Of a stretch of 64,000 nucleotides of DNA, positions 3,726 through 62,899 are shown one piece after another. The notes under the pieces are model-generated. The model worked only from the letters and a program-made list of their open reading frames with translations, was not told the DNA's origin and made no database searches. Source of the stretch: Chiloscyllium plagiosum (lineage: Eukaryota); assembly GCF_004010195.1 (NCBI RefSeq), contig NC_057746.1, positions 13,413,058 through 13,477,057 of the forward strand, in the 5' to 3' direction. The translations under genes were made by a program, and so were the position numbers. The number at the start of each line of letters is the position of its first letter. The first letter of the stretch is position 1.

Positions 3726-3739
3726 CAATAAAAAAAAAG

Positions 3740-6147: not shown

Positions 6148-6355
6148 TGGTCTCTTTGTTCAGCAACACTCCCTGGACCTTTCCATTAAGTGTATAAATC
6201 CTGCTAAGATTTGCTTTCCCAAAATGCAGCACCTCGCATTTATCTGAATTAAACTCCATCTACCACTTCTCAGCCCATTGGCCCATCTGATCAAGATCCT
6301 GTTGTAATCTGATGTAACTCTCTTCGCTGTCCAGTACACCTCCAATTTTGGTGTC
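6147..6355 (-). mobile_element. CR1 RT fragment, inverted
   Basis: MEFNSDKCEVLHFGKANLSR on the minus strand. Confidence 0.9.
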
Positions 6356-8150: not shown

Positions 8151-8456
8151 TTTAGGATTTCATCCATCTTCTCTAGCTCCAGATAGAGAAAAATTCTGAA
8201 TCTTTAAGGGGGTCTGTACAGTTCATTGTTCATCTTTAACATCACAGGCTTGCTTGAATGCTTTATTTTTTAGCACATTATTAGTTCTAATAGTAATGCT
8301 TTGAAATATCTGGAGGTGCAAAAAATAATATCCTAGACTAGCTTACAAACAAATTCATCAAATAATATGGAACAGTTCCATGAACTTAATTTCATTGCGT
8401 ATCTGGGTGATATGAAAAAAGAAAAAATGCTTTACAAGAAGTATTGCCAACCAAGG

Positions 8457-8878
8457 AAGTACTAACCCTCTGACTTCCTGAGTACTGACCCTCTAACAGT
8501 GCAGCACTTCCTCAGTACTGAGGCTCTCACAATGTGGCACAGCTTCAGTACTGACCCTCTAACTGTGCAGCATCTCCTCTTTAATGACCCTCTGACAGAG
8601 CGGCAGTCCCTCAGTACTGACTCTCCGACAATACAGTACTTCCTCAGTACCGACCCTCTGACAGCGCAGCATTCCCTCAGTACTGACCCTCCAACTGTGT
8701 GGCACTCCCTTAGTGCTGTACCCTTGATAGTGCAACAATCAGTACTGACACTCTGACAGTGCAGCTCTCCCTCAAAACTGCCCCTCTGGTAGTGCAGGCA
8801 GTCCCTCAGTATTGACCCTCTGACATTGAAGCACTCCCTCAGTATTGACCCTCTGACAGTGCCACACTCCCTCAGTAC
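8457..8878. repeat. 33-bp minisatellite, about 13 units, consensus CAGTACTGACCCTCTGACAGTGCAGCACTCCCT
   Basis: Direct tandem repeats; explains the 11-aa periodic ORF 8499-8756. Further units at 10145-10166 and 14398-14455. Confidence 0.95.
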
Positions 8879-8882
8879 TCGG

Positions 8883-10142
8883 CAAAAGTGAGGATTGCAG
8901 ATGCTGGAAACCAGAGTTTAGATCAGACAGGTGCTGGAGAAACACGGCAGGTCAGGCAGCATCCAAGGAGCAGGAACATCAATGTTTCGGGCAAAAACCC
9001 TTCATCAGGAATAGAGGCAGGAAGCCTCCAGGGTGGAGAGATAAATGGGGGCTGTGGGGCTGGGGAGAAGGTAGCAAAGAGTACAATAGGTGAATGGGGG
9101 TGGGGATGGAGGAGATAGGTCAGAGGGGAGGGTGGAGTGGATAGGTGGAAAGGGAGATTGGCAGGGAGGACAGGTCATGAGGACAGTGCTGAGCTGGGAT
9201 ACATGTTATGTCTAAAGATGAAAAACTATGAAATATTACAACAGTGCAAAATATTAGAGTGATCCAAAATACCATGTGGGTGAGAGTTAAGAAGGTTCTA
9301 CCTTACGCAGTAGAAAAGAAGGTAGACATCACTGAAGAAATGCTAACTGATTGATCAAACTATTGTTTGACCCTATCCAATCTACACACCTGGACAAGCC
9401 ACATGCAGTTTTAATTCCAGCTGTATTGAAACAGTTAAGTACACTTTCACAATTTCAAGTACCACTCAGGAAAATGCAATTAGAACTGGATATGCAGGTG
9501 AAGCAGAATATTGTATCATAACAGCCTTGAAAGGCCAGAAGTCACAACATTAGATTATAGTCCAATGCATTTTTTTGCAATCACAAAATGTCGGCGGATG
9601 ATGCGGTTTATGCGAAGGTTGGTAGGGTGGAAAGTGCGGACCGGGGGGCGGGCGGGGGAGGGGTTCTGTCCTTGTTACGATTGGAGGGGTAAGGTTTGAA
9701 GTCGGAGGGACGGGATGTGTATGAAATGCGTTGGAGGGCATCTTCAACCATGTGAGAAGGGTAATTGCAATCTCTAAAGAAGGAGGCCATCTGGTGTGCT
9801 CTGTGGTGGAACTGGTCCTCCTGGGAGCAGATACAGCAGAGGCGGAGGAATTAAGCATACAGGATTGCATTTTTGCAGGAGATAGGGTGGGAAGAGGTGT
9901 TACCCAGGTAGATGTGGGTGTCGGTGGGTTTGTAAAAAATGTCAGTGTCAAGTCGGTCGTCATTAATGGAGATGGAGACGTCCAGGAAAAGGAGGGAGGT
10001 GTCAGAGATGGTCTAGGTGAATTTAAGGTCGGGGTGGAATGTGTTGGTGAAGTTGATGAACTGCTCAACCTCCTCACAGGAGCACGAGGTGGCGCCAATG
10101 CAGTCATCAATGTAGCGGAGGAAGAGGTGGGGAGTGATGCCG
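8883..10142 (-). mobile_element. Penelope-like element fragments (RT segment plus family A terminal repeat)
   Basis: LFLRYIDDCIGATSCS.EEVEQFINFTNTFHPDLKFT (PLE-type RT) ending near 10013; terminal repeat at 8883-9010 with CTGATGA-A-GGGT-TTTT-GCCC-GAAA; ~9200-9570 is unrelated intervening sequence. Confidence 0.88.
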
Positions 10143-10169
10143 GTCTCAGTACTGACCCTCTGACAGGGT

Positions 10170-13100
10170 AGAATGGATGTGATTCCCTTATTATTAAGAA
10201 ATGAAGTTAACTCAACAGTAAGCAATGATGTAGGGTCGGATGGTGTAGAATTTGTGAGGGTAGAAATGAGAATCTGCAAAGATGAAAAAACACATTTGGA
10301 GTTATGTACAGGCCTCCCTTAGGAGCTGTGCCTCAAGGTACATGAGCAGATAGAAAAGATGTGTAGGAAAGGCAAAGTTACAGTGATCATGGGGGATTTG
10401 AATATGAAGGTGGAATGGGAAAGTCAAGTTGGTAGTGGATTGCAAGAAAAGGAATTTGTGGAATGTCAACTAGATGGCTTTTTGGAGCAGCTTATTGTGA
10501 AGCCCACTTGGAAATAGGCAATACTGGATTTAGTGTTATGCAACAAGGCAGACATGATAAGGAAGCTTAAGGTGAAGGAACCCTTAGGAGGCAGTGATTA
10601 TAATATGATTCAATTTAATCTGCAGTTTGAGAGGGTGAACATAAAACAGAGGTAATAATTTTACCGCTTAATTTAAGGCATGAGGAGGAACTGGGTAGAA
10701 TTGACTGGGACAGGAGTCAAGCAGGAAATACAATGGAAATACAGTGGAAATACAGTGGAAAAGCAATGGCAGGAATTTCTAGGAGTAATTCAGGAGACAC
10801 AGCAGAGATTCATCTCGAGGAAAAAGAAGCATAGTGCAGGGAGGCTGAGGCAACCACGGCTGATTAGGGAAGTCAGGGAAGAATAACAGCAAAAAGAGAA
10901 AGCACATTGGGCAAGTTGTTGGAGAGAATCCTGAGGGATGGGATGTACATGTATTTGGAAAGGCAAGTAAATATTAGGGAGAGTCAACATGGCTTTGTGC
11001 ATGCGAAATCATGTCTCACAAACTTGATTGAGTTTTCTGAAGAAGTAACAAAGAGGATTGATGTGGGCAGAGTGGTAGATGTGATCTATATGGACTTCAG
11101 TAAGGCGTTCGACAAAGTTTCCCATGGGACACTGATTAGCAAGGTTAGATCTCACGGAATACAGGGAGAAGTAGCCATTTGCATACAGAACTGACTCAAA
11201 GGCAGAAGATAGGGTGGTGGTGGAGCGTTGTTTTTCAGACTGGAGGCCTATGACCAAGGATCAGTGCTGGTCCTCTACTTTTTGTCATTTACATAATAAT
11301 GTGGATGTGAGCATAAGAGGTACAGTTAGTAAGTTTGCAGATGACACCAAAATTGGAGATGTAGTGGACAGCGAAGAAGGTTATTTCAGATTACAACAGG
11401 ATCTTCACTAGATGGGCCAATGGGCTGCGAAGTGGCAGATTGAGTTTAATTCAGATAAATGTGAGGTGCTGAATTTTGGGAATGCAAATCTTAGCAGGAC
11501 TTATACACCTTATAGTAAGGTCATAGGGAGGGTTGCAGTACAAAGACACCTTGGAGTGCAGGTTCATAACTCCTTGAAAGTGGAGTCGCAGGTAGATAGG
11601 ATAGTGAAGAAGGCGTTTGGTATGCTTTCTTTTATTGGTCAGAGTATTGAGTACAGGAGTTGGCAGGTCATATTGTGGCTGTACAGGACATTGGTTAGGC
11701 CATTGTTGAATATTGCGTGCAATTCTGGTCTCCTTCCTATCGGAAATATGTTGTGAAACCGGAAAGGATTTAGAAAAGTTTTACAAGGATATTGCCAGGG
11801 TTGGAGGATTTGAGCTATATGGAGAGGCTGAACAGGCTGGGGTTTTTTTTCCCTGGAGCATTGGAGGTTGAGGGGTGACCTTACAGAGGTTTACAAAATT
11901 ATGACAGGCATGGATAGGATAAATAGACAAAGTCTTTTCCCTGGGTTGGGGAGTCCAGAACTAGAGGGCATAGGTTTAGAGTGAGAGGGGAAAGATATAA
12001 AAGAGATCTATGGGGCAACAAAGTCAGCATGGTTTCATCAAGGGGAGGTCATACTTGACAAACATATTAGAATTCATTAAGGAGGTAATGAGCAGGTCCG
12101 ACCAAGGAGAGCCAATGCATGTTTTCTACCTGAACTTCAAGAAGGCCTTTGACAAGGTGTCACACAGGAAGCTACTGAGTGAGATGAGGGTCATGGTGTT
12201 CAAGGCAAGGCGCTCACTTGGATAGAAACTTGGCTGTCTGGCTAAAAGCAGAGAGTGGGGATAAAAGGGTCCTTCTTAGGATGGCAGTCAGAGAGAAGTG
12301 ATGTTCCACACGGCTCAGTGTTGGAACACAACATTTCACTTTATACATTAATAGAGTCAGAGATGTACAACATAGAAACAGATTCTTCAGTCCAACTCGA
12401 TCATGCTGACCAGATATCCTAACCTAATCTAGTCCCATTTGCCAGCACTTGGCCCATATCTGTCTAAATCTTTCCTATTCATATATCCATCCAGATACCT
12501 TTCAAATGCTGTAATTGTACCAGCCTCCACCACTTCTCCTGGCAGCTCATTCCATATACGCATCACCCTCTGCGTGAAAATGTTGCTCCTTAGGTCTCTT
12601 TTATATATTTCTCCAGTCAGCCCGAACCTATACCCTCCATTCTGAACTCCCCCAATCCAGGGAAAAGACCTTGCCTATTTACCCCTATCCATGCCCCTCA
12701 TGATTTAATAAACCTCCATAAGGTCACCCCTCAGCCTCCAACACTCCTGAGAAAACAGCCCCAGCCAATTCAGCCTCTCTCAATCGCACAAATCCTCTAA
12801 CGCTGGCAACATCTTTGTAAATCTTTTCTGAATCCTTTCAAGTTTTATAACATCCTTCCGATAGGAAGGAGACCAATATTCCAACAGTGGCCTAACTAAT
12901 GTCCTGTACAGTCGCAACATGATCTCCCAACTCCTCTCCTCAATACTCGGACCAATAAAGGAGAGCATAACAAACGCCTTCTTCATTATCTTATCTATCA
13001 GCAACTCTACTTTCAAGGAGCTATGAGCCTGCACTCCAAGGTCTCTTTGTTCAGCAACACTTCCTAGGACCTTGCTATTACGTGTCCAAGCCCAGCTATG

Positions 13101-14395
13101 CTATGATCTGCTTTTACAAAATGTAGCACCTCGCATTTACCTAAATTAAACTCCATCTGCCACTCCTCAGCCCATTGGCCCATCTGATCAAGATCCCGCT
13201 GTACTCTAAGGTAACCTTCTTCACTGTCCACTACATCTTCAATTTTGGAGTCCTTTGCAAACTTACGAACTATATTTCCTGTGTGCATATCCAAAGTATT
13301 TATAACATTGACAAAAAGCTTTGGATCCAGCACGATCCTTTGGCACTCCACTGGTCACAGGTCTCCAGTCTGAAAAGCAACCCTCGTCCATCACTCTTTG
13401 TCCTTTACTTTTGAGCCAGTTAAGTCTCCAAATGCTAGCTCTCCCTATAGACCTAGTTGAAGGAACTGAGGGCATTCTGGCTAAGTTTGCAGACAATACA
13501 AACATAGGTGGAGGGACAGATAGTATTTAGGAGATGGGGAGGCTGCAGAAGAATTAGGACAGGTTAGAAAAGTTGGGTGATGACATGGCAGATAGAGTAA
13601 AACATGGGAACGTGTGAAGTCATGCACTTTGTTTGGAAGAATAGAGGCATTGACTACTTTCTAACTGGGGAGAAAATTCAAAACTTTGAAGTGCAAAAAG
13701 ACTTGGGAATTCGAGTCCAGGATTCTCTCAAGGTAAACTTGCATGTTGAGTCAGTAGTTAGGAAAACAAATGCAATGATGGCATTTATTTTGAGAAGTCT
13801 TGAATATAAAAGCAGGGATGTACTTCTGAGTCTCTATAAGACTCTGGTCAGACTACAATTGGAGTATTGTGTGCAGCTTTGGTCCCCCTATGTCAGGATG
13901 GATATACTAACCCAGTAGCGTATTCAGAGGAGGTTCACGAGAATGGTCCCAGGACTGAAAAGCTTAACAAATGAGGAATGTTTGAGGATTCTGGGTCTAT
14001 ACTCAATGGAGTTTAGATGAATGAAACGTACAGAATACTGAATGCCCTGGACAGAGTGGGAAGATATTTCCATTGGCAGGAGAGACTAGGACCTGAGGGC
14101 ACAGCCTTAGAGTAAAACGAAGACCTTTTCGAATGGAGATAAGGTGGAACCTCTTTAGCCAGACAGTGGTAAATCTATAGAATTCAGTGCCACAGCAGGT
14201 TGTGGAGGCCAGGTCATTAAGTATATTTAAGACTGAGATAGATAAGTTCTTGAGTATCAAGAGGATCAAGGATTATGGGGGAAATGTGGGAGAATGGGCT
14301 TTAGAAACATATCAGCCATGATTGAATGGTGGGGCAGACACGATGGATTGAATGGCCTAATTTCGGGCTCTTATGTCTTATGGTCTTACTGTCTT
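10170..14395 (+). mobile_element. Composite CR1: host copy (10170-10905, 12014-12352, 13450-14395) interrupted by other CR1 copies
   Basis: APE (IMGDLNMKVEW), RT (SQHGFIKGRSYLTN...KAFDKVSH) and TCTTATGG-type tail stay in order across the interruptions; a different subfamily occupies 10906-12013. Confidence 0.85.
12353..13420 (-). mobile_element. CR1 3' fragment, inverted, nested
   Basis: Minus-strand ORFs DQMGQWAEEWQMEFNLGKCEVLHF and LYRTLVRPLLEY. Confidence 0.9.
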
Positions 14396-14599
14396 ATTCC
14401 CTCAGTACTGACCCTCTGACAGTGTGACAGTGTCCTCTCTCAGTAGTGACACTGTGGCAAGAGGAAGTAATGGTGCAGTGATCTAGTCGCTGGCCTGTTC
14501 ATCCAGAAACTCAGGTAATGTTCTGGGTCCTCATGTTCAAATCTCAGGTGATGGTGGCATTTGATTGGAAAGCATTGTTGGCCATTATCGATTGTCATA

Positions 14600-15300
14600 A
14601 GTCCTTTGAGTCTTCCAACACGGCGTCATGCCAGTGATCTTCCCAAACTGAGCTCATCCCACCTGCTTGCATTTGGCCCACATCCCCCCCAGACATTTGT
14701 TATTCATGTACTTATCGAAATGTTGTAATTGTACCCACATCCACCACTTCCTCTGGAAGTTCATTCCACGTACAAACTCTTCTGTGTCTAAAAAATGTTT
14801 TCCTGAATGTCTTTTTTCAATATTTCTCCTCTCACCTCAAAAGTATGTCCCCTTGTCTTGAAATTCCTACCAGAGAGAAACTCTACCTCCTGTAGACCTT
14901 ATTTATATCCCTGATGATTTTATAAAAGTCTATAATGCCACTCTAAACCTTCTGTGATTGATTTAAAACTTCCTAGCTTGTCCAGCCTCTCCTTAGAATT
15001 CAAACCCTGCAATCCCAGGAACATCGTGGGAAATCTCTTCTGAACCCACTCAGTTTAAATATATCCTTCCTACAACAGGGTGACCAGAACTGGGCACAGT
15101 ACTCCAGAAGAGGCTTCACCAATGTCATGTACAACCTCCACATGACTTCCCAATTCCTATACTCAAAGGTCTGGGCAATGAAGACAAGTGTGCCAATTGC
15201 CTTCTTGCCACCCTGTCGACATTTGATACAAGCTTCAAATTATATACATGAACCCTGAGGTCTTTCTGTTCTTCCTAAAGCCTTACTTTTAATTGTATAC
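14600..15300 (-). mobile_element. Degraded CR1 3' fragment
   Basis: Reverse complement matches the CR1 3' region (cagaactgggcacagtactcc). Confidence 0.8.
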
Positions 15301-15339
15301 TGTTCAGAAAAGATTTACAAACAAGCCATTCAGTTTTAA

Positions 15340-17545
15340 TAATGGCTACAAAGTGTCAACAGTGAAATGAAACCAAAGAAATGGCTGAGGAACTCAATAA
15401 GTACTTCACGTCAGTCTTCACGATGGAAGGCAGAGTAATATCCCAAACATTCAAGAGAGTTTATTCGATAATCTGGATAAAGGAACCAAGGGTATTCTGG
15501 CTAAGTTTGCATTTGATACAAAGATAGGTGGAGGGACAGGTAGCATTGAGGAGGCGGAAAGGTTGCAAAATGATTTGGAGAGGTTAGGAGAGTGGGCAAA
15601 GGAGTCGCAGATGGACTACAATGTGGGAAAGTGTGAGGGCATGCACTTTGGTAGGAAGAATAGAGGCATGCAGTATTTTCTAAATGAGAAAATTCAGAAG
15701 TCTGAAGTTGAAAGAGATTTGGAGTTCAGGATTTTCTCAATGTAAACTTGTAGGTTGAGTCAATAGTTAGGAAGGGAAATGCAATGATGACATTTATTTT
15801 GAGATGACTTAAATATAGAAACAAGGATGTACTTCTGAGAATCTATAAGGCTGTAGTCAGACCACATTTTGAGTATTGTGTGCAGTTTTGGGCTCCGTAT
15901 CTCAGGAGGGATGCATTGGCCCTGGAGCATGTTCAGAGGAGGCTCACGAAAATGATCCCAGGAATGAAAAGCTTAACATATGAGGAACGTTTGAGGACTT
16001 AGGGCCTGTATTCAATGGAGTTTAGAAGGACAAGGGATGTTCTAATTGAAACATATAGAATACTGAATGGCCTGGACAGAGTAGATGTTGGGATGATGTT
16101 TACATTGGTAGGAAAGACTAGGATCCGAGGACTCAGCCTTAGAGTAAAGAGAAGACCTTTTAGAATGGAGATAAGGAGAAACTTCTTTAGTCAGAGGGTG
16201 ATGAATCTATGGAATTCACTGCCACAGAAGGCTATGGAGGCCAGGTCATTGAGTATACTTAAGAATGAAATAGATAGGTTCTTGAGTATCAAATGTTTCA
16301 AGGGTTATGAGGAGAAGGCGGGAGAGTGAGGTTGGAAAACTGATCAGCCATGATTGAATGGTGGAGCAGACTAGATGGGCCAAATGACCCGATGTCTTCT
16401 GGTCTTATGGAAATCAGATGAATCAGCTTGCATTCGCTAAGGCACTAAAAAAGACAATGGTAGAAACAGTCCTGTCAACCTTGCAAAGTCCTGCCTTACT
16501 GCCATTTCTTGGGGTGGGGTGGGGAGGGGGAATGGAATAAAAATAATGCCTCCAAGTTTGCAGATGATCAAAGCTGGGTGGGAGGGTGAATTGTGAGGAG
16601 TATGCTGAAAAGCTTCAGTCTGATGTGGACAAGTTGAGTGAGTGGGCAATGCATAACAGATGAAGTATAATGTGGGGATAAATGGGAGGTTATCCATTTT
16701 CGGAACATATAGGAAGACAGATAACTATCTGAATGTGTTGATAAATTGGGAAAGGGGGTCTTGGTGACCTTGTACACCAGTCGCTGAAGGTAAGCATGCA
16801 GGTGCAGCAAGCAATGAAGGAGGAAATGGTGTTGGGTTTCATTGTGAGGGGTTTCAGGTTAATGAGCCTTGATGAGACAACACCCTGGAGTATTGTGTCT
16901 CATTTTGCACTCCTTACCTGAGGCAGGATGTTCGGTATGTGGAGGAAGTGTAACAAAGGCTTACCAGACTGATTCCTGGGATGGCAGCCTAATGTAAGAA
17001 GTGATGTTGGATTGGTTAGGATAATATTTCCTGGAGTTTTGAAGAATGGGCGGGGCTTAAAATTCCAGACCAAAGTTAGCTATGGATCAATTTCAGGTAC
17101 GTGGGTTTAGTGTAGTTTGATATTCATTGGTTCACAGTGACATAATGGGCTGCAGGGCTTGCTCCTCTGCTGTGTGACACTGGGATTCCACATCATAGAA
17201 GTTTATAAAGTTCTAACAGGACTAGATAGGGTAATGTGGGAAGGATGCCACCAATGACCAGAACAGGGGTCACAGTCTAACAATATTTAGGGACTAAGAT
17301 AAGGGGAAATTTCTTCACCCAGAGAATGGTGAGAATGTGAAATTCTCAGCCACAGAAAGTGATTGAAGCCGAACATTGAATGTTTTCAAGAAAGAGTTGG
17401 GTATCATTCTTAGGGTGAAAGGGATGAAGGGAAATGGGGAGAAATCAAAAACAAGGTACGGAATTGAATGATCATCCATCATCATAATAAATAACAAAAC
17501 CGACTCAAAGGGCTGATTGGCCTATTCCTGCTTCTATTTTCGACG
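15340..17545 (+). mobile_element. Two successive CR1 3' fragments
   Basis: LQNDLERLGEWAK..QM.YNVGKC..MHFGRKN; RRNFFSQRVMNLWNSLP; a second, older copy at 16550-17545. Confidence 0.85.
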
Positions 17546-20809: not shown

Positions 20810-21310
20810 TGATGGAACGGCAGTTGACCAGGTCGGATTCGTCCTCTTTTTTATTTAGAGGACGTGACTGGGAAATTTTCCACATTTTCAGGCAGATGCC
20901 AGTGCTGTATTGGAACAACTTGGCTACGGGAGAGGCAAATTCTGGAGCAAATGTATTTCAGTACTACTGATGGAATGTTGTCAGGGCCTGTAGCCTTTGC
21001 ATTATCCAGTGTCTCCAACTGTTTCTTGTTGCTGGTAGGTTGGACAAGATTGGGTTGGGATATCTGGTCGACATGGACGGGTTGGACCGAAGGGTCTGGT
21101 TCCATGCTGTACATCTCTATGACTCTATGACTCTATATCACATGGAGTGAACTGAATTGGCTGAAGACTGGTATCTGTAATGCTGGATCATCTATTCAGC
21201 ACTACTGACTGAAGATTGCTGTGAATGCTTCAGCCTAGTCGTTTGCACCGATGTGCTGGGCTGTTCCACCATTGACTTTGGGGATATCTGTGTAACCTCT
21301 TCCTCCAGTG
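20810..21310 (-). mobile_element. LINE pre-RT fragment with a CR1 3' tail (21030-21135) inserted
   Basis: KQLETLDNAKATGPDNIPSVVLK on the minus strand. Confidence 0.75.
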
Positions 21311-22313
21311 TTCATAAGAGTTCATAAGATTTAGAAACAGAATTAGGCCATTCAGTCCATCGATCCAGATCTGCCATTTGATCATGGCTGATATACTCTT
21401 CACCCACATTTTCCTGCCTTCTCCCCATATCCCTTCACCCCATTACCAATTAAAAATCTGTCTAACTCAACCTTAAATTTACTCACTGTCCCAGCATCCA
21501 CCACACTTTGGGGTAATGAGTTCCACAGATTCACAGATACTTGGGAAAAGTAGTTTCTCCTCAACTCTGTTTTAAATTTGCTACTCCTTATCCTAAGTCT
21601 ATGACCTCTCATCCTAGGATGCCCCACAAGAGGGAGCATCCACTCCAAGTCTATTTTTATCCACACCTTTTATCATCTTGAATTTGATCTCTCCTCATTC
21701 TTCTAAATTTCAGAGAGTATAGGCCTAAACAGTTCAATCTCTGGGATCAATCTTGTGAACCCTCCTGGGAACTGCCTCCAATGCCACTACATCTTTCCTC
21801 AAATAAGGACAACAAAACTGTGCACAGTAACTCCAGGTGGAGTCTCACCAATACCTTGTACAGTCACAACAATACTTCTTTCCCTTTATATTCTATTCCC
21901 TCAGCTATAAAAGCCAATAATCTATTTGCTTTCTTTATTATCTGCTATACCTGCACATTAGTTTTCCATGACTCGTGAACGAGTATACCTCGATCTTTTT
22001 GCACTGAAGCACTCTAAAATCTTTCCCCATTTAGATAATGATTTGCTTTCCCATTTTTTTGACTAAAATGTATGATCTCACCCTTATCCATGTTAAACTC
22101 CATCTGCCTAATTTTGGCCCACTCTCCAAACCGATCTATATCCATTTCTAAGGTTCTTATTTCCTCACTGCAATTTACCATCCTGTCTATTTTTGTATCA
22201 TCTGCAAATTTGACTATAAAGCCTTCTATCCCTTTATCCAAGTCATTAATATAGATTGTAAATTACTGAACCCTGTGGCAGGACTGAACCCTATGGCACC
22301 CCACTTCTTATAT

Positions 22314-22562
22314 AGATTACTTAGATTACTTACCGTGTGGAAACAGGCCCTTCAGCCCAATAAATCCACACCGACCCGCCGAAGCGCCACCCATCCAGAC
22401 CCATTCCCCTACATTTACCCCTTCACCTAACACTACGGGCAATTAGCATGGCCAATTCACCTAACCTGCACATTTTTTTGTATTGTGGGAGGAAACCAGA
22501 GCACCAGGAAACCCACGCAGACACGGGGAGAATGTGCAAACTCCACATAGAGTTGCCTGAGG
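22314..22562 (-). mobile_element. HE1-like V-SINE, 5' truncated
   Basis: Reverse complement of the central domain gtggagtttgcacattctccccgtgtctgcgtgggtttcc and of the CR1-like tail. Confidence 0.88.
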
Positions 22563-23464
22563 TGGGAAAGAAACATCTTACCATCCAGAAAAAAAAACAT
22601 TTATCCTGACTCTCTGTTTTCTGTCCATCAGCCAGTCATCTATTCAGGCTAATAAATTACCCCTAATCTTATCTGATTCAACCTTGTGAATTAAACTTTT
22701 GATATATTACATCTGCAGCATCCCCATTATCCACCTTGCCTGTTTCACCTTTGAAGAACTCTAGCAAGTTAGTCAAACATGATTTGCCCTTCATAAACCC
22801 ATCCTGACTCTGATGGATAGCATTTTGACTTTCCAAATGTTTTGATATTGTTTCCTTGATAATGATTCTAACACTTTCCAACAACAGATGTTAAACTAAT
22901 TGGTCTGTAATTTCCCACATATTGCCTCCTTCCTTTTTGAATAAGGACGTTATATTAGCCATTTTCTAATCCACTGTATCCTTTTCTGTGTCCAGAGAAA
23001 TTTTGGAATATTGTAATCAATGGATCTACTATCTCTGCTGCCACCTCCTTTAATAACCTAGGATGTAGGCCATCAGGCCAGGGTGACTTGTCTGTCTCCA
23101 ATCCTAATATTTTGGTAAGTCATTTTCCCTGTCAATGTTGATTGTTCTGAATTCTACCTTATCTGTTGCCTCTGACTTGCCTGTTCCACCAGGAATGGTA
23201 TGTTTGTCCTCCACCATGAAAACTGAGGCTAAGTATTGATTTAGAATCTCTCCCATTTCAGTGTTCCCCACTATTAACTCTCCGGTTTCATCTTCCAAGG
23301 GGCCAACATTTGCATTAGCATTCTCTTTCCTTTTATATACGTATAGAAACTTTTGATACCCTTTTGTGCTAGTTTTTTTGTAATTTATCTTAGGTATCGT
23401 TATTAAGTTGTTAGTATCCCTTTGTTTATATTTGAAAGTTCCCAATCATTCATCCTACCATTGG

Positions 23465-23575
23465 TAAAGAGTGTGGTGCTGGAAAAGCACAGCTGGTCAG
23501 GCAGCATCCTAGGAGCAGAAGAATCGACATTTCGAGCATAAGCTCTTCATCAGGAGTGGAGTCCTCACTTTCTCC
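23465..23575 (-). mobile_element. Penelope terminal repeat (family A) with hammerhead motif and short inverted end
   Basis: 14-bp duplication catcctaccattgg (23451-23464 / 23576-23589); CTGATGA-A-GAGC-TTAT-GCTC-GAAA-TGTC. Confidence 0.85.
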
Positions 23576-25064
23576 CATCCTACCATTGGCCTTTGCTATC
23601 TGGTACACTTTAGTTTTGACTATATATTGTCTTTGACCATCTTGTTTAGCCATGGATATTGGTTAACCCCCTTACCATCTTTCTTTCTCACTGGGACACA
23701 TTTTAGTTGTGAGGAATTGAGTAGCTCCTTAAACAATTGCCACTGTTCATCCACTGTCTTACCTTTTAGCCCTGCCACCCAATCTACTCAGGCCAAATTT
23801 GTCCTCAAGCCTATGTAATTTCCTTTGTAAATTCCAGAACACTATTGTGGGACTCCACTTTTTCACCCCCAAACTGAATTTAGAATTCTATATTATTATG
23901 GTCACTACTCCCTCGCGGATCTTAACTATGATGTCATCAATTGATCTCTCCTCATTATACAATACCAAATCCAGAGTACCCTGCTCCCTGGTTGGTTCCA
24001 CTGCTCCAAGAATCAATCAGTATCAGATGCATCAGTAACAGGTGGATAAATAAGGGCATGGTATATCGGTACCAGAGAATTGGAGGAATGTTTAGAAAAG
24101 GGGTGCAGTGATAAATATGACCATTTCAGGACATTCAGTCAGCCTTAAAATACATTTTTAGAGTCTGTAATCTGGAACCAAAACTGTTCACAGTATTTCA
24201 GCTGTTGACTGACTATTGTCTTGTACATTTGAGCCAAATCTCCCTACTTTTACACTGCACTTCCTTTGAAAGAAAATGTCACAATCTTCATTAACCTCTT
24301 CCACCATATTTCCTTCTATCTATTACTACAACAAATCTTTTGCTAAATCACTCACATAAATCCTTACAAACTCCCAACTCCCCAGTCTTTACTTTCCATT
24401 AGTCATAGCATTTCTGTAACAGCTACTCTGTCTCATTGAAATTGACAGTAAATGCTTAGAGGATATTTTTCCTCTTGGGAGATTCTAGGACCTGAGGGCA
24501 TAATCTCAGAATAAAGCGGTGTTAATTTAAGACAGAGATAAGGAGGAATTTCTCCACTCAGTCATGCGTCTTTGGAACTTCTTTCCACAGAGAACTATGG
24601 GTGCAGTATCCTTCTAAATATTTAAGTCTGAGATAGATTCTAGGTCAGTTGGGGAAATTGAGAGTTATAGGGAAAGGGCAGGAGAGTGGATGCATGGCAT
24701 GTCAGATCAGCCACAATCCTATTGAGTGGTGGAGTAGGCTTAAGAGGCAAAATGGCTTACTCCTGTTCCTATTTCTTATAGTTTTATGGTCTTATTTTCT
24801 TTAGATAACGTCAGCTTCAGTAAATCCTTTCCTTCTTTCCTACCAGCAAATGATATCGTTATGATTTGTGTTCATTGAAGTCCAAGATCACATATTTGAA
24901 TGTTTCTGGTGCACAACTAGATCTTTTTTAAACCACTTCTCCTGCCGCTCCTCCCTTCAACCTGAACTGCAAATCAAGAATAAGCTCTCAATCCTTGCTC
25001 CATTATCTCATGAAACCCCTCTTGCCTGTTCCCTCAACAACAACAACTGTCAGGAGTTAAACAA

Positions 25065-27713: not shown

Positions 27714-27993
27714 CCCAGTCCACACTTTTGAATCCACTCAGGCTGCTGTGTTGCACACGACAGGTATTTATCCCCAGACACTGGCTGGTACTGGAGGAGA
27801 TCCTCCACCTGATAGGTCCAGTCACCATCTGATAACAAGACAGTGTTGATGACAGCATCAGGAATTGGTACTCCATTTTTTAGCCATGTGACTTTGATCT
27901 GGGGAGTGTAAAATCCAGTGACATGACATGAGAGCGGAGCTGACTGTGCAGAATGCTGAGATACTTTAGGTAGGAGAGTGACTGTCAGTTCAT
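27714..27993 (-). pseudogene. MHC class II beta chain, beta2 (Ig C1) exon, frameshifted
   Basis: Acceptor ttctgttccag|AT at 27993 and donor TGGG|GTAAG at 27714. Reads DELTVTLLPK...LSCHVTGFYTPQIKVTWLKNG...LLSDGDWTYQVEDLLQYQPVSGDKY, then in a shifted frame CRVQHSSLSGFKSVDW. The exon is 280 nt; restoring TAC[AC]C gives YTC and the usual 282-nt class II beta2 exon. Confidence 0.93.
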
Positions 27994-29049
27994 CTGGAAC
28001 AGAAAGAAAGTTCATAAAAAGTACAGGACAAGTTCAAATGTTTTCAGTTTATGTCTGACTCTCCCATCCCCATTTGTAATTCCTGAATAACCCCAATTGG
28101 ATCGGTTATGTCATGTTGGATGCCTATATTAGGCCTGGCCTTCATTCAGGTGACCAAGATTAAGATATGTTTTGGAAATTGAGAAATTGCAATAGAAAAA
28201 CAATACTTAAAACACCTCCAAATGTCCCCGATTGGACCACATTAAGATATAGTCTCATTCTAAATGGCTCAAACTCTCCAGAAGCCCTAGTGTAAACTGC
28301 AAGTCAGACTAGGTGAGAGCTCAAACAGCAAGAAGAGACAATGTTGGGTATTAACTGCAGTCACTTCTAAAACATGCTGAGTAAGGTCCAGGCAAACAGC
28401 ATAACGTACAGCAGTAGGACTAGCTGATTAGCATCAGCACAGAATACCTATTATTCAGTGTCAGGCATCATTATTTAGAAATGAGCAAGGTCAGATTTAA
28501 CTTTTAAATTTAATTTATTTCATTAATCAACCTGTTTGGACATTTTATTACACACCTTGGAGGTGGGGCTTAAACCTGCGTTTCAATCCAGGAGGGACAT
28601 TACCACGAGCAGAGCAGGAATATTTCTCTAACAATGACCACAATGTGATCAAAGTGCAATATTGTATTTAAACGACAGCAATATGAAACTCTCAAGGTCT
28701 TAGTTTTAGGCCAGGGTGGATGCAGTGAAATGAGATTGTGCGAGCTCATTGTAATTGGGTAAAAACAATAAATGTGTAAAATATAGACAGTGGGAAGTGT
28801 TGATGATATTGAACCAGTTTATACACCCATAGCAGGGAAGGGACCTCTATTTGTCTAAAACATCACAGACACTAAAGTAGAAAATAAATACAAAGTAACA
28901 GAAGGGTTCTTGAGGCACAGTGGTAGTGTCCCCACCCTTAAGTCCCACCTGTTCCAGAGGGATGTCATAACAGCACTGATTAGGTTGATTAGAAAACATA
29001 ATAGCGTCTGGTGAATGGAAGTGATAAGTAGCACATGACAAAACAGATG

Positions 29050-29534
29050 AGCCACAACCCAACTCCTGCACTCAAAGAACTGGCCAATGAAGGCAAGCGT
29101 GTCAGACACCTTTTCAAACACCCTGTATACATGTGAAGCAAACTTCAAAGATTTGTGCACCGGTACCCCTAGGTCCCTCTACTATAGAGCTATCTAAGGC
29201 TCTACCATTAATTGTATAAACCCTACCCCTGTATGTTGTACCAAAAGGCAATATCTCAACTTATCCAGATTGAACCCCACCTGCCATTTTTCAGCTGAAT
29301 TGATTAAGATCCCTCTGTATTCTTAGATAACTTTCTTAGTCTACTGTCATCAATTTTTGTGCCTGTAAATTTACTAACCATGCCCTCTTAATTCCCATCC
29401 AAATCAGTTTTATAAGTGACAAACAAGAGGACCCAGATTCATTCTTGTGGAACACCGCTGATGACAGGCTTCCAGTTTGAAAAACAACCCACCACCATTA
29501 CTGTCTCCTATCATTAAGCTAATTTTATATCCCA
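29050..29534 (-). mobile_element. CR1 RT fragment
   Basis: HKSLKFASHVYRVFEKVSDTLAFIGQ on the minus strand. Confidence 0.8.
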
Positions 29535-30905
29535 TTGGCAAGCTCTCTGATTCCCATGGAAGAGATTGCAGAGCCATTGGCCTTGATTTTTATGTCCTCG
29601 TTGTCTACAGGAGTAGTGCCAGAAGATTGGAGGCTAGCAAATGTGGTTCCCTTGTTCAAGAAGGGGAGTAGGGATAACCCTAGTAACTATAGGCCGGTGA
29701 GTCTCACTTCTGTTGTGGGAAAAATCTTAGAGAGAATTGTAAGGGATAGGATTTATGAACATCTGGATAGGAATAATGTGATCAAGGATAGTCAGCATGG
29801 TTTTGTGAAGGGCAGGTCGTGCCTCACAAACCTTATTGAATTCTTTGAGAAAGTGACTAAGGAGGTGGACGAGGGGAAAGCAGTAGATGTGGTATATATN
29901 NNNNNNNNNNNNNNNNNNNNNNNNNNNNNNNNNNNNNNNNNNNNNNNNNNNNNNNNNNNNNNNNNNNNNNNNNNNNNNNNNNNNNNNNNNNNNNNNNNNN
30001 NNNNNNNNNNNNNNNNNNNNNNNNNNNNNNNNNNNNNNNNNNNNNNNNNNNNNNNNNNNNNNNNNNNNNNNNNNNNNNNNNNNNNNNNNNNNNNNNNNNN
30101 NNNNNNNNNNNNNNNNNNNNNNNNNNNNNNNNNNNNNNNNNNNNNNNNNNNNNNNNNNNNNNNNNNNNNNNNNNNNNNNNNNNNNNNNNNNNNNNNNNNN
30201 NNNNNNNNNNNNNNNNNNNNNNNNNNNNNNNNNNNNNNNNNNNNNNNNNNNNNNNNNNNNNNNNNNNNNNNNNNNNNNNNNNNNNNNNNNNNNNNNNNNN
30301 NNNNNNNNNNNNNNNNNNNNNNNNNNNNNNNNNNNNNNNNNNNNNNNNNNNNNNNNNNNNNNNNNNNNNNNNNNNNNNNNNNNNNNNNNNNNNNGACTGG
30401 AGGTTGGCTAACGTGGTGCCACTGTTTAAGAAGGGTGGTAAGGACAAGCCAGGGAACTATACACCAGAGAGCTTGATGTCGGTGGTGGGCAAGTTGTTGG
30501 AAGGAATCCTGAGGGACAGGATGTATTTGGAAAGGCAAGGGCTGATTAGGGATTGTCAACATGATGATTTTACAAGATGATTAGGGGTTTAGATAGGGTC
30601 GACAGTGTGAATCTTTTTCCACGTATGGAGTCAGCTATTATGAGGGGGCATAGCTTTAAATTAAGGGGGGGGGGGGTAGGTATAGGACAGATGTTAGGGG
30701 TAGGTTCTTTACTCAGCGAGTCGTGAGTTCATGGAATACCCTGCCAGTAGCAGTGGTGGACTCTCCCTCATTATGGGCATTTAAGCGGGCATTGGATAGG
30801 CATATGGAGGATTGTGGGCTAGTGTAGGTTAGGTGGGCTTGGATCGGCGCAACATCGAGGGCCGAAGGGCCTGTACTGCGCTGTATTCTTCTATGTTCTA
30901 TGTTT
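29535..30905 (+). mobile_element. Young CR1 RT pieces on both sides of the gap, ending in a TTCTATG-type tail
   Basis: Uninterrupted EEIAEPLALIF...PEDWRLANVVPLFKKG...NYRPVSLTSVVGK...SQHGFVKGRSCLTNLIEFFE up to the gap. Confidence 0.93.
29900..30394. other. Assembly gap (495 N) inside the beta1-beta2 intron, flanked by CR1 sequence
   Basis: Run of N. Confidence 1.
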
Positions 30906-31391
30906 ACTAATTTAGTCTTTGACAAAGGTTCCACATGGTAGACTAAAGTCCACGTCCACCATGTCTAGCAAAGGTCATGTCAGAACACTTAAACACAGTG
31001 CATGTGGTTGAGGCAGGGTTCAATGGAGGCATACAAGGGGGACTGGGTTGATTATTTGGATAGAAATGGTATAGGGATATGGAATAAAGGCGGGAGATTT
31101 GTAGTAGGTCATGATGATTGAAGAGCTGGTACGTTCATAATGGGCCAAGTGGGCCTGTGCACCATAATCTTTTGAGGTTGCAGAGGGCTGATTGTGCAAT
31201 AGGGTTGGAGGAGTTTTAGGTAACAGGAACAGCGTGCGGGCTGAGGATCTCTAACTCAGACTCAGTCTGGGACCATGTTTCCAGTGCGGTGCAGTGTTGG
31301 GAAAGTGAGGAAAGCTCTCCCCTCAGACACACACTGGGGCGGGGGCACTGCTGATATCTCCCTGTGCCCCCACCCCACGGGCCGCTCTCAC

Positions 31392-31650
31392 CTTTCCAGG
31401 GCAGCACCTCTCTCCAGGATACCAATGGTAGCCGGACATGCAGCGAACACTTCTTGGTATATGGCTTCCCCTCTCTCTTTAATGAATCTCTCCGCATAAG
31501 ACTTCATCCAGTCCTTCACCGCAATGAACCTCTTCTGGTTAAAGTCGAAATACATGATCAGCTGTTGGTCATAGATGAACTGGTCAAAGTAGGTCCAGTT
31601 CCCGGAGCTGTTAAACTCACAGCCGGCAGCTATGCTCAAGGTGAGAGTCT
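31392..31650 (-). pseudogene. MHC class II beta chain, beta1 (peptide-binding) exon, frameshifted
   Basis: Acceptor tgcctctcag|AG at 31650 and donor AAAG|GTGAG at 31392. Translation (E)TLTLSIAAGCEFNSSGNWTYFDQFIYDQQLIMYFDFNQKRFIAVKDWMKSYAERFIKERGEAIYQEVFAACPATIGILER has the Cys pair, an NSS glycosylation site and the shark IIB-like YDQQ..Y.D.NQ..FIAVK.WMKS block. The exon is 259 nt; adding 2 nt in GAGAGAG (31414-31408) gives ...ILEREVLPWK and a 261-nt phase 1-1 exon. Confidence 0.92.
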
Positions 31651-32629
31651 CTGAGAGGCACAGAGACACAGATGGAGTTAGTGCAGGTCTGAGCCTGACG
31701 GTCATTTGTATTAAAATATCAGTACCGTCCACAGTAATCACAATGTAAGGTATGAAAACAAGCTGGAGGGAAAGACAGCGGCACATTTCCAAAGCCCCCT
31801 GAATACCCACTGGGGTGAGATACTTTGGGAAATTATTATCAAATTTCAAATATCAAATTAAGTCAACTTATTCAGACACAATTGCATCTCCCTGGCAGGT
31901 GGAACATGAACCCAGACCTTCTTGTTTATAGATAAGGACGTGACCACTAGGTGCAAGGCACACACACACACACCCCAAGAGGCAGGGATACTACCACTGC
32001 ACTACAAGAGCCCCATGATTTGAGATTGTTTAAGGTCAATCATCGCAGTCCATGGACATATCTGCAGGAGTTCCTCAGTCTAGAAATTTTCAAATTAACC
32101 TGTTCAAATATTTTCTTACTACCTCTAGAAGAGATGGGCTTAACTCCACACCTCCTGGCTCAGGTAGGGACTTTACCACTCTGCCATAACAGCCCTCCTA
32201 ATTTGGTTTTAACTTAAATATTTTGAATAGAGACAATATGACTAAGCATTCATTCCATGAAAACTAGGGGAATTAAGTCACATGCACATCAGATTAATGT
32301 CAAATGTTTGATTCATTATTGCCAACCAAACCAGTGAGTAAGTCTAATATTAACCAAAAGAGTATCTTTTACTTAATATCAACATTATAAAAAAAATTGC
32401 AGTACTTATCATAAAGCTTCACTGTCCTTAGATGGGGACATACACCAAACGGTTGAAGCTTGAGGAAGCATGAACCTCACACATTAAACACTTCAGATGT
32501 TCCAGACTTGGTTCAAAAACTCAAACACTGCTCAACATTTGTCGATGCCAGTTGTTTCTAATGGTTCTGCATTCTTATTAATACCAACATATCTTTTGTT
32601 TATTTACTTGCGTGATTACTACATACTCA

Positions 32630-33128
32630 GTCAGCTGTATAGCACAGAAACAGACCCTTTGGTCCAACTTGTCCATGCTGACCAGATATCCTAATCTAAT
32701 CTGTTCCCACTTGCCAGCACTCAGCCCACATCTCTCTAAACCCTTCCTATTCATATACCCATCCAGATGCCTTTTAAATGCTGTAATTGTATTAGCCTCC
32801 ACCACTTCCTTTGGCAAATCATTCTATACTCGCACCACCCTCTGTGAAACATTTGCCCTTAGGTCTCTTTCATATCTTTCCCATCTCACCCTAAACCTAT
32901 ACTGGACTCTGGACTCCCCCACCCCAGGGAAAAGACTGTACTTATCCTATCCATGCCCCTCAATTTTATAAACTTCTAGAACACTCAGCTTCCAATGCTC
33001 CAGGGAAAACAGCCCCAGCCTATTTACCTCTCCCTACTGCTCAAACCCTAGCAATATCCTTGTAAATCTTTTCGGAACCTTTCAAGTTTCACAACATCTT
33101 TCGGATAGACAGGAGACCAGAACTGCAA
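32630..33128 (-). mobile_element. CR1 3' end
   Basis: Reverse complement of the 33620-34150 region. Confidence 0.9.
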
Positions 33129-33164
33129 GAGACACTTCAATTGAACATAATCAAGAACAAACCC

Positions 33165-34150
33165 ACGCTGGGTCCTCTACTTTTTGTCATTTATATAAAT
33201 AATTTGGATAGGAGCATAAAAGGTATGGTTAGTAAGTTTGTGGATGATACCAAAATTGGAGCTATGGTGGACAGTGAAGAAGGTTACCTCAGATTACAAC
33301 AGGATCTGGACCAGATGGGCCAATGGGCTGAGAAGTGGCAGATGGAGTTTAATTCAGATAAATGAGAGGTGCTGCATTTTGGGAAAGCAAATCTTAGCAG
33401 GACTTATACACTTAATGGTAAGGTCCTAGGGACTGTTGCTGAACAAAGAGACCTTGGAGTGCAGGTTCATAACTCCTTGAAAGTAGAGTCCCAGGTAGAT
33501 AGGATAGTGAAGGTGGTGTTTGGTATGCTTTCCTTTATTGGTCAGAGTGTTGAGTACAGGAGTTGGGAGGTCATGTTGTGACTGTACAGGACATTGGTTA
33601 GGCCATTGTTGGAATATTGCGTGCAATTCTGGTCTCCTTCCCATTGGAAAATGTTGCGAAACTTGAAAGGGTTCGGAAAATATTTACAAGGATGTTGCCA
33701 GGTTAGGAGGTTTTGAGCTATAGGGAGATGCTGAAAGGCTGCGGCTGTTTTCCGTGGAGTGTCGGAGGCTGAGGGGTGACCTTATAGAAGAGCATGACAA
33801 AATTATGAGGGGCATGGATAGGATAAATAAACAAAGTCTTTTCCCTGGGGTGAGGAAGTCCAGAACTAGAGGGCATAGGTTTAGGGTGAGAGGGTAAAGA
33901 GACCCAAGGGGCAACGTTTTCATACAGAGGGTAGTACATGTGTGGAATGAGCTGCCAGAGCTGGAGGAGGCTGGTAAAATTGCAACATTTAAAAGGCATT
34001 TGGATGTGTATATGAATAGGAAGGGATTGGAGGGATATGGGCAGTTGCTGGCAGGTGGGACTAGATTGGATTGGGATATCTGGTCGGCATGGACAGGTTG
34101 GACCGAAGGGTCTGTTTCTATGCTGTACATCTCTATGACTCTGACTCTAT
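33165..34150 (+). mobile_element. CR1 3' ~1 kb
   Basis: LGPLLFVIYINNLD..SKFVDDTKIG; ctatgactctgact tail. Confidence 0.92.
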
Positions 34151-34159
34151 TCAGTACTG

Positions 34160-34310
34160 ATTTGGAGATGCCAGTGTTGGATTTGGGTTTACAAAGTTAA
34201 AAATCTCACAACACCAAATTATAGTCCAACAGGTTTAATTGGAAGCACTAGTTTTCAGAGTGCCGCTCCTTCATCAGGTGGTTGGACTATAACCTGGTGC
34301 GTGATTTTTA
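34160..34310 (-). mobile_element. Penelope terminal repeat (family B) with hammerhead motif
   Basis: 16-bp duplication actctattcagtactg (34144-34159 / 34311-34326); CAC-CTGATGA-A-GGAG-CGGCA-CTCT-GAAA-AC-TA-GTG; internal inverted repeat (tatagtccaac / gttggactata). Confidence 0.8.
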
Positions 34311-37360: not shown

Positions 37361-38296
37361 GCAATTTTGGAGAAGATTTGCAGCTCAGGTTGAGGTTCAG
37401 GTTGTACGTTTTGTCGCTAAGCTGGAAGGTTTGTTGTCAGATGTTTCATCACCATGCTAGGTAACATTATCGGTGAGCCTCCAGCGAAGCATTGATGGTA
37501 TGTCCCGCTTTCTATTTATGTGTCTTGATCTCTTAAAGTGAGTGATACCATTTCGGGTTATTTTCCTTAGGGATTGGTAAATGGGTTCCAAATCGATGTG
37601 TTTGTCAATGGAGTTCCAGTTGAATGCGAGCCTCTAGGAATTTCTGTTTATGTCCCTGTTTAGCCTCTCTTCGGATAGATGTGTTGTCCCAGTCGAAGTG
37701 GTGTGCTTCTTCACCTGTATGAAAGGATACTAGTGATAGTTGGTCATGTCCTTTGGTGGCTAGTTATCGTTCCTGTAGCCTGGTGGCGAATTTTCTGCCT
37801 GTCCGATGTAGTGTTTCTTACAGTCCTCACATTTCATTTAGTAAATTATATGGGTTTTAGTGCTTGTTTGTGTAGCGTCCTTTACGTTCATCAGCCACTG
37901 TTTAAACGTGTTGGTCATCAGCCGATGTTTAATTGTGTTGATAGGTTTGTGGGCTAACATGTTGCTTAGTGGACGAAGTTGTCTGGTAGAGATGTCGTTG
38001 ATGTGTGTTAATGTGGTTAGAATATCTAGGCGTGTTTTGTCTTCTTGTTTGGGTTTGTTGTTTAAGAATCAGATGACTGTGTTAATTGGGTGCCCGTTCT
38101 TCTTGAATAGGTATTTTTCTTCTGCGCGTAGTTCCTGGGTGTTGCAGTGTGCTGTGGCCTGTTTAAATAATGTCCTGATGCAGCTCCGTTTGTGGATGTT
38201 GGGATGATTGCTTCTATAGTTAAACATCTCGTCTGTGTGTGCGGCTTCCTGTAAACTCTGGTCGCACGGTCTTCATTTACTGTTCGTTCATGCACT
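37361..38296 (-). mobile_element. Penelope (Poseidon-like) 3' fragment: RT thumb, GIY-YIG remnant, family C terminal repeat
   Basis: TRVYRKP..., YRSNHPNIHKRSCIRTLFKQATAHC on the minus strand. Confidence 0.85.
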
Positions 38297-38826
38297 GTGT
38301 TGCAACTGTGATTCCAATATTAATTTCAGGATCACTTCACCGTTAATGGATGTTGTTTTTTTTTCATTTTTAATGTGCAAATAGTCGCAGGTTTAATAAT
38401 CTGCCACACAACATAATAACAGCTTTCTGTGACGGCAAAGCACTGAGGAAATATTTTATGGAACATTAAATTTTATCCGTTCAAAGCCGTTTGAGTTTAC
38501 TGACAAGCAGGAAACCTTCGATATCCAGTCAATGAGACGGAGAATTCAAGGGTCTGGAATGGTGATACAAAATTAATTACGGGGCCCATTAAACTTATCC
38601 ACCAATTTAGATTCACCTGCTTTCAACGTGCGTACAATCATACTGGTTTCAGTAGTTAACAATTGCATTCCGTAGAAAGTCCTTTCAAATTCAGAATAGG
38701 CGATAGAAACAAAAGACCTTAATTGATCAGGGAAATTATTTTTGTTCATAATTTATTGGCTTTTTATAAAATTTCTGTTTTCTTTATCATATGCCACGAA
38801 GTTTGCTAATCAGAGGGTTAGGGAGA

Positions 38827-39597
38827 ACTGGATGTAGGTTTGCTCGCTGAGCTGGAAGGTTTGTTTTCTCAGCAACAAACTCAACCAAGCAGACAAAACA
38901 CGTCCAGGCGGCCTAGTACTCTACATCAAATACATCTCGGAAATGCCTGCCAGACTACTCAGACCTCTTGGCAACATGGTAGCCCACAAAACCACCAACA
39001 CACTAACAAAACATTTAATGAACTTGAAAGACCCTATAAAGACCCGTGAAAGACAACAAACAAAACTAATGTCATTTACAAAATACCTTGCAAGAACTGT
39101 AACAAACACTACATTGGACAACCAGGTAGAAAACTAGCAACCAGGATACATGAACTAGCAACAAAATAACCATGATCCATTTTCACTGGTATCCTTACAT
39201 GCAGACGAGGAAGGACAGTACATTCAGTGGGACAACGCATCCATCCTAGGACAAGCCAAACAGAAACACGCACAAGAATTCCAAGAAGCATGACCTTCTG
39301 ACCGGAACTCTGTCAACAAACACATTGACTTCCATCCCATTTACCACCCCCTGAGAAAAAGTAAAGGAAAGGACATCAACACAGGAAATAACGTCACCAC
39401 ATGAAATGACACCACCAACCCAAGGAAACCTAAACACATAAATAGAAAGCGGGCCAGGCCACTAGTGCTTCCTCCGAAGCACTGATGATGTTAGCTAGTA
39501 TGTTGACAAAACGTCTGAAAATGAACTTTCCAGCTCAGCGAGCAAACCCAAATCCAGAACCTCAACCTGAGCTACACATTTTCTGAAAACTCGCTAA
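38827..39597 (+). mobile_element. Penelope (Poseidon-like) 3' fragment with GIY-YIG and family C terminal repeat; short inverted repeat copy at the 5' end
   Basis: NVIYKIPCKNCNKHYIGQPGRKLATRIHE at ~39068-39155; 38829-38869 is the reverse complement of ~39518-39557. Confidence 0.88.
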
Positions 39598-40040
39598 TAG
39601 GGTGGACAGTAATAGCCCTTTTCATCGGATGGCGATGGCTGGTATGAGGAGGCATAGTTTTAAACTCAGGGGTGGCAGCTAGATGACAGATGTCAGAGGT
39701 AGTTTCTTTACTCAGACAGTAGTAGGGGCGTAGAACTATCTTTCTGCAGCAATAGTAGGCTCACCAACTTTAAGGACATTGAAGTGGTCACTGGATTATC
39801 AAATGGACGAAAATGGAATAACATAGGATAGATAGAGTTATTTAGGAATCAGGAAGATATTCGTTCACAGAGTGATAAGTTCTTTTGGAGTTCATTATCA
39901 GAAGGTATTGTGAAGCTCATTAATAAAGTACACCAAGACCGAGGTTTATAGACTTTATATAGTTATTAATGACATCATGCAAATGGGACATGGTTTGGAA
40001 ACTTTGAATTGCAATAGATGGTCAGTTATGATCTTGGACG

Positions 40041-62760: not shown

Positions 62761-62899
62761 TTACAAACATTCAGTCCTCATTTCTGTGCCGGAGACTTCA
62801 ATAATCTCAACTGACTTCTCCTTTCTTTTCATTTTATCATATTTTCAATGCAATTGAATCCATCACCGCAGGCGTTAACTTGAGGTTTGTTTCATCTTG

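Follow-up and report, generated by a model that had tools for sequence, protein, structure and literature searches.

A very probable, apparently truncated class II beta pseudogene in the bamboo shark Chiloscyllium plagiosum

On its minus strand, the stretch of Chiloscyllium plagiosum DNA analysed here (64,000 nucleotides of contig NC_057746.1, hereafter the window) carries a beta1 and a beta2 exon of MHC class II beta type, each 2 nt short. We conclude that they very probably belong to an old, unprocessed and truncated DBB-like class II beta pseudogene that yields no working protein. The locus is most likely ordinary MHC debris, and neither a novel gene nor a fault of the assembly. The original prediction had offered two options, a pseudogene or an intact gene damaged by consensus errors. 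The first is favoured by the two frame shifts, to which other samples also point, and by the loss of invariant residues.

The exon pair proposed in the original prediction, with the lengths given in Table 1, was confirmed by protein alignment and by a spliced contig from another run (X17). Alignment to intact proteins requires exactly one frame shift per exon. Beta1 and beta2 are separate exons with phase-1 introns, and their junction agrees with that of the X17 contig, which derives from a paralog. The canonical phase-1 splice sites and the stop at the start of beta2 were both found on the sequence, the as-assembled splice reading ...ALER* with the stop as first codon of beta2. All four splice dinucleotides are intact and, as had been claimed, neither exon contains a nonsense codon in its class II frame (about 176 codons). 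A processed (retro-)pseudogene was ruled out by the kept 3.4-kb GT..AG intron and by flanks homologous to a second genomic copy. On the same strand, a chance ORF of 132 codons (31786-31391) starts at an intronic ATG, continues into beta1 in its frame and might be annotated as a gene by mistake; among 12 candidates, none was a relative of its 132-aa product.

Table 1. Features of the class II beta locus, in window coordinates
Feature	Position	Strand	Remarks
Beta1 (peptide-binding) exon	31392..31650	-	259 nt; phase 1 acceptor; AG before, GT after
2-nt deletion near end of beta1	31408..31411	-	frame shift leading to a stop at first beta2 codon; X17 paralog 2 letters longer
Intron 2	27994..31391	-	3398 nt; GT..AG
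Decayed LINE remains in intron 2	29523..30950	+	RVT_1 at 29523-29897; very high copy
Beta2 (Ig C1-set) exon	27714..27993	-	280 nt; AG acceptor and GT donor
2-nt deletion in two-unit AC repeat	27762..27765	-	just before second Ig cysteine; paralog contigs 2 letters longer

The class II beta identity was upheld by a match of beta2 to Pfam C1-set (E 5e-16) and of beta1 to Chiloscyllium plagiosum class II beta (E 5e-28, 70% identity). The two domains named beforehand were C1-set, which was recovered in beta2, and MHC_II_beta, which was not: beta1 matched no Pfam family, MHC_II_beta being absent at E 0.1. The precomputed domains of intact shark class II beta proteins also lack MHC_II_beta. Against solved structures, beta1 gave weak matches only (E 0.16 or worse). 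From 47 candidates, 25 class II beta proteins of sharks and rays passed the cut-off of E 1e-12 with beta2 (best match 86%; 86% over 76 aa for Chiloscyllium proteins), and all 25 beta2 matches, together with the three named beta1 matches, are called class II beta. Identity to the closest bamboo-shark proteins, P0001 and P0002 (UniRef I7A066 and I6ZPJ1), was 68-69% in beta1 and 80-83% in beta2. A tree was built on 24 rows, namely the window copy, with an X at each break, and 23 of the 25 proteins, P0013 and P0024 being excluded because of aberrant N-termini. The window copy came out as sister to P0001 and P0002 with support 98/92 in this tree, which contained no DAB sequence. Residue numbering was taken from PMC8010645 and placed by manual reading of the alignment. 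According to the same source, Asp at beta150 marks DBB and Asn marks DAB; the window copy has Asp, and two whale-shark kin carry Asn. Compared by eye, the DBB forward primer of PMC8010645 matches the window at 16 of 20 positions and the DAB primer at 12 of 20. On these sequence features, the copy may be DBB-like.

Several landmark residues are kept. In beta1 these are the cysteine pair (Cys15 and Cys79, at 31621 and 31438) and the glycan site at Asn19 (N-S-S at 31612), and in beta2 the first cysteine (27928), the tryptophan (27886) and the S-D-G-D-W motif. Others are lost. Asn-beta82, a conserved peptide-binding residue (PMC8010645) and Asn in 23 of 23 intact relatives, is changed to Thr (31429), and Trp occupies the position of Arg-beta93 (31398), as it also does in one horn-shark protein. 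In beta2, the invariant Pro of E-P became Leu (27988), the Leu before the first Ig cysteine strand became Pro (27937), and GFYP reads GFYT by a change of Pro to Thr (27907).

Eight runs (five samples from two studies, one organism) contain half or more of the sampled words. Four of the 24 runs listed, X3, X5, X10 and X17, were compared as contigs at 86% likeness, and these included two DNA-bearing samples of the same species. The RNA-type run X17 yielded one spliced contig of 1604 nt at a distance from the window of 11.5% in beta2 and 15.9% in beta1, which is an intact expressed paralog with both dinucleotides. In X17 this paralog contig alone covers the exons; contigs drop rare variants, hence this is no sign that the window copy is silent. 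Contigs of single-copy depth, including intron, revealed a second genomic copy in the same species at about 10% from the window (8.8% over beta2 plus intron, 9.8-10.6% in the intron). This second class II beta copy was observed at 27828-28100, 28646-29098 and 31451-31898 in contigs of X3, X5 and X10. Its beta1 is nearer to the window relic than to the expressed gene: at seven printed beta1 sites the window, the second copy and contigs of a related species agree, whereas the expressed gene differs. The related species is that of X10, of which about 85% of the run was read; its copies are 8-13% away from the window and, where beta1 sites were printed, agree with the second copy. X10 has no coverage at 27763, where absence is uninformative. 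In X5, exon depth reached thousands over an intron background of 4-40. This run may be RNA with genomic background, and its intron contigs were not counted as transcription. Two high-depth beta2 types, both with the 2 letters, were present in X5 at 27753-27962, against one high-depth beta1 type at 86%, which suggests that another class II beta gene or allele, its beta1 very different, is expressed. The species thus has at least three class II beta copies, the expressed gene, the second genomic copy and the window relic.

The spliced X17 contig carries two extra letters at 27763, and its beta1/beta2 junction region counts 21 letters against 19 in the window. For beta2, the proposed loss of one dinucleotide unit at 27764/27763 agrees with these data, AC slippage being consistent with the longer paralog contigs. 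The slippage within GAGAGAG (31414-31408) proposed for beta1 is doubtful, since the expressed paralog reads E-S-E at this site and its extra letters are not a GA unit. P0001 and P0002 likewise read E-S-E, so that the deletion itself may have created the GA run. GA slippage could nevertheless have acted here, because E-R-E is the reading in some sharks that are more distant. Among small indels, the loss of two bases within short repeats or microhomology is a common class, and two 2-nt deletions thus need no special mechanism.

Could an intact gene have been harmed by consensus errors of the assembly? Both lesions sit in short repeats or microhomology and no nonsense codon is present, as would be expected in that case. 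At the beta1 site, however, two locus-identical contigs with one mismatch each were recovered, X5 contig 30 (31095-31493) and X3 contig 21 (31054-31478), both with a net 8 extra letters. The mismatch-position column counts gap letters, as seen in 4 of 4 calibration rows crossing an indel (two indel-free rows also fit). For X5 contig 30 the mismatch at 31308 is given as 186, which is the distance to 31493 without inserted letters. The 8 letters therefore lie in the intron, within 31095-31307, and X5 does carry the beta1 deletion. A net gain of 8 nt restoring the beta1 frame was accordingly rejected for X5, and we infer that the 8 extra letters of X3 occupy the same intron place. These two other samples thus share a stretch of intron 2 (31095-31307) that differs from the window by 8 nt in length. 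At the beta2 site, X3 has a depth of 6.8, in which a depth-2 contig with many other differences contains the 2 letters. The remaining 4.8, without them, equals the single-copy depth of the flanks, a value obtained by subtraction in one sample, the piece itself being absent from the printed ones. X5 shows only insertion-bearing contigs at this site, which would fit consensus errors, but these have depths in the thousands and many other differences from the window; they are paralog sequence and uninformative on the window copy. Across ten locus-identical pieces from two samples we counted 10 substitutions in 4388 nt (0.2%) and no gaps other than the 8-nt difference (2 of 10 pieces), and the assembly is therefore not indel-prone here. 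Consensus error, the other option of the original prediction, is thus contradicted by X5 at beta1 and by the X3 subtraction at beta2, with independent contigs without the extra letters at each site. Nor can two errors account for the missing exons and the changed invariant residues. Assembly error is an unlikely cause of the frame shifts, and an intact gene disguised by such errors is scarcely credible.

The pseudogene does not appear to be young. A recent inactivation had been proposed, and three observations speak against it. In a leave-one-out comparison, the window copy was changed at 5-6 of 50-54 invariant columns and the intact proteins at 0-4 (none in 12 of 23). In beta2, its end branch measured 0.23, about ten times longer than those of five carpet-shark sequences of the same clade (0-0.024). 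The distance to the nearest paralog was 9-11%, alike in exon and intron; measured against the second copy, the exon has been preserved little better than the intron. On the other side, both exons would be free of nonsense codons with a probability of 0.29 after 5% neutral change and of 0.10 after 10%, and their absence therefore mildly favours a shorter dead period. Between beta2 and the expressed paralog, 9 of 16 changed codons were synonymous (18 of 32 differences printed), and part of the distance to the expressed gene therefore arose under selection. The mutation rate of the epaulette shark is 7e-10 per generation (PMC10587355). At this rate, a change of 5% per lineage corresponds to tens of millions of generations, a figure too rough for an age, which nevertheless argues against a recent event. 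Several percent of neutral change at so low a rate likely represents many millions of years.

Searches for the rest of the gene point to a fragment. With the 25 relatives as queries, tblastn of the window at E below 0.03 returned beta1 and beta2 only. Profiles of the CP/TM exon from 23 relatives scored at best 3.3 bits in the window, in which 27.7 kb downstream were covered, whereas 100 controls with 30% of residues randomised gave a minimum of 6.9 and a 5th percentile of 17.4 bits. For the leader exon, the best score in the 32.3 kb upstream was 6.5 bits, against a 5th percentile of 4.9 and a median of 23.5 in controls, which makes this a weak test. The decayed controls of these exon profiles carried no frameshifts. 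Leader, CP/TM and cytoplasmic exons were thus not found in the window, a result that is firm for CP/TM only. Seven annotated shark and ray IIB genes span, by subtraction, 15.3, 16.5, 18.8, 26.9, 40.8, 50.1 and 64.0 kb (PMC10751288). Given such spans, truncation on at least one side is likely, while one long intron on either side is possible. We are probably dealing with part of a gene rather than with a complete gene that bears two lesions.

The same spans bear on a different reading, in which the pseudogene or null allele is whole but has very long introns, with its leader and/or transmembrane exon outside the window; it would be dead in the animals sampled yet untruncated, or would have intact alleles in other animals. 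Annotated shark IIB genes of 41, 50 and 64 kb (PMC10751288), the intact splice sites and the comparison of two DNA-bearing samples of the species are compatible with this, as is the class II beta copy-number variation reported in sharks (PMC9992475, PMC8010645). With both ends outside the window, however, the gene would exceed 64 kb, at or above the largest of the seven. Five to six invariant changes would be unexpected in an allele with intact sisters, and the locus-identical contigs are only 0.2% from the window. We regard this reading as unlikely, and retain a truncated pseudogene as the better description.

The locus had been called an orphan. This holds in so far as no other host gene, and no alpha gene, was found within the 64 kb: among 262 ORFs of at least 62 aa, the only matches were the C1-set and six to RVT_1, a search that shorter exons would escape. 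It does not establish a position outside the MHC, as in white shark and catshark the distance from one class II gene to the next ranges from 14 to more than 200 kb (PMC10751288). Given this wide spacing, often above 100 kb, an empty 64 kb does not place the locus outside the MHC. The window has no second copy of the class II beta exons and no Rfam match. About 25% of it is repeated within itself. Decayed LINE remains are dense at 3600-16300, 21300-23900, 32600-34200 and 60700-62800, and the sole assembly gap (495 N, 29900-30394) falls inside the LINE remains of intron 2. Fragments at 9550-10320 and 37400-39600 resemble a second class of retroelement, without a Pfam match at E 0.001; by their motifs they look Penelope-like. 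A degenerate tandem array at 8460-8920, with Cys-rich repetitive translations, resembles a minisatellite-type repeat of sharks.

A relic retained for a non-coding role, either as a beta1 donor for gene conversion or as a spliced non-coding RNA, would explain why splice sites and frames are otherwise clean. The seven printed beta1 sites that the window shares with the second copy and the related species, and not with the expressed gene, would also suit a donor, but descent accounts for this sharing. Moreover, the distance to the second copy is the same for exon and intron, which indicates no constraint, and no conversion tract was observed. Such a role is very improbable. In wider terms, it seems to us quite unlikely that the fragment is an ancient relic situated outside the shark MHC, or a conserved donor of beta1 sequence to expressed class II genes by gene conversion. 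If one of these were true, the view that sharks have a compact class II region made of classical genes only would need qualification.

The following course of events would lead to the old, truncated pseudogene that we favour. A DBB-like class II beta locus would have been duplicated at the DNA level, with at least the part between the end of intron 1 and the beginning of intron 3 included. This copy may have been without leader and promoter and without transmembrane exons from the outset, or may have lost them later. Released from selection, it would have accumulated point changes and suffered two 2-nt deletions, independent of each other, that would now be fixed or common. A transcript, if made, would stop at the beta2 start. 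Splicing from cryptic donors close to where beta1 ends could undo the first shift, yet with the second one the strand of the second Ig cysteine loses its register and the Ig domain is disrupted. The window copy has no open frame through beta1 and beta2.

We found no description of a shark class II beta pseudogene in the literature, although the gene list in Table S12 of PMC7677710 could include the locus. None is described in the accessible parts of the shark class II literature, including PMC8010645, PMC10751288, PMC9992475, PMC7677710 and PMC6523485, and the word 'pseudogene' is absent from the main text of PMC8010645 and PMC10751288. The method of PMC8010645 retained only sequences with full translated domains, and catshark alleles carried no frameshifts (PMC9992475). 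The relic thus seems to be an undescribed shark example. Its significance is modest, class II beta pseudogenes and fragments being a standard outcome of the birth-and-death evolution of the MHC. It raises the class II beta copy count of the species. Because no stop occurs in its first 79 codons, exon-2 amplicon typing of bamboo sharks could also pick it up and score it as an allele.

A beta chain design with two ectodomains is common to the relic and to the W-type (WB) shark genes (PMC10751288), from which it is set apart by its named matches rather than by direct comparison. Human HLA-DRB2, -DRB6, -DRB7 and -DRB8, the fragment HLA-DRB9 and HLA-DPB2 are also dead class II beta duplicates or fragments that keep genomic introns. 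DRB9 is a single beta exon, whereas the relic has two and is of independent origin, in a cartilaginous fish. The HLA nomenclature report (PMC12936402) lists these human pseudogenes as well as DRB9, an isolated fragment. From shark DBB class II beta (PMC8010645; P0001 and P0002 in C. plagiosum) the window copy differs by its two frameshifts, by the change of Asn-beta82 and other invariant residues, and in that no leader, transmembrane or tail exon and no alpha gene was found with it in the window. It is like DBB in its exon lengths, apart from 2 nt, and in its intron phase, and has the same beta1 cysteine pair, glycan site, C1-set core and Asp of the S-D-G-D-W motif.
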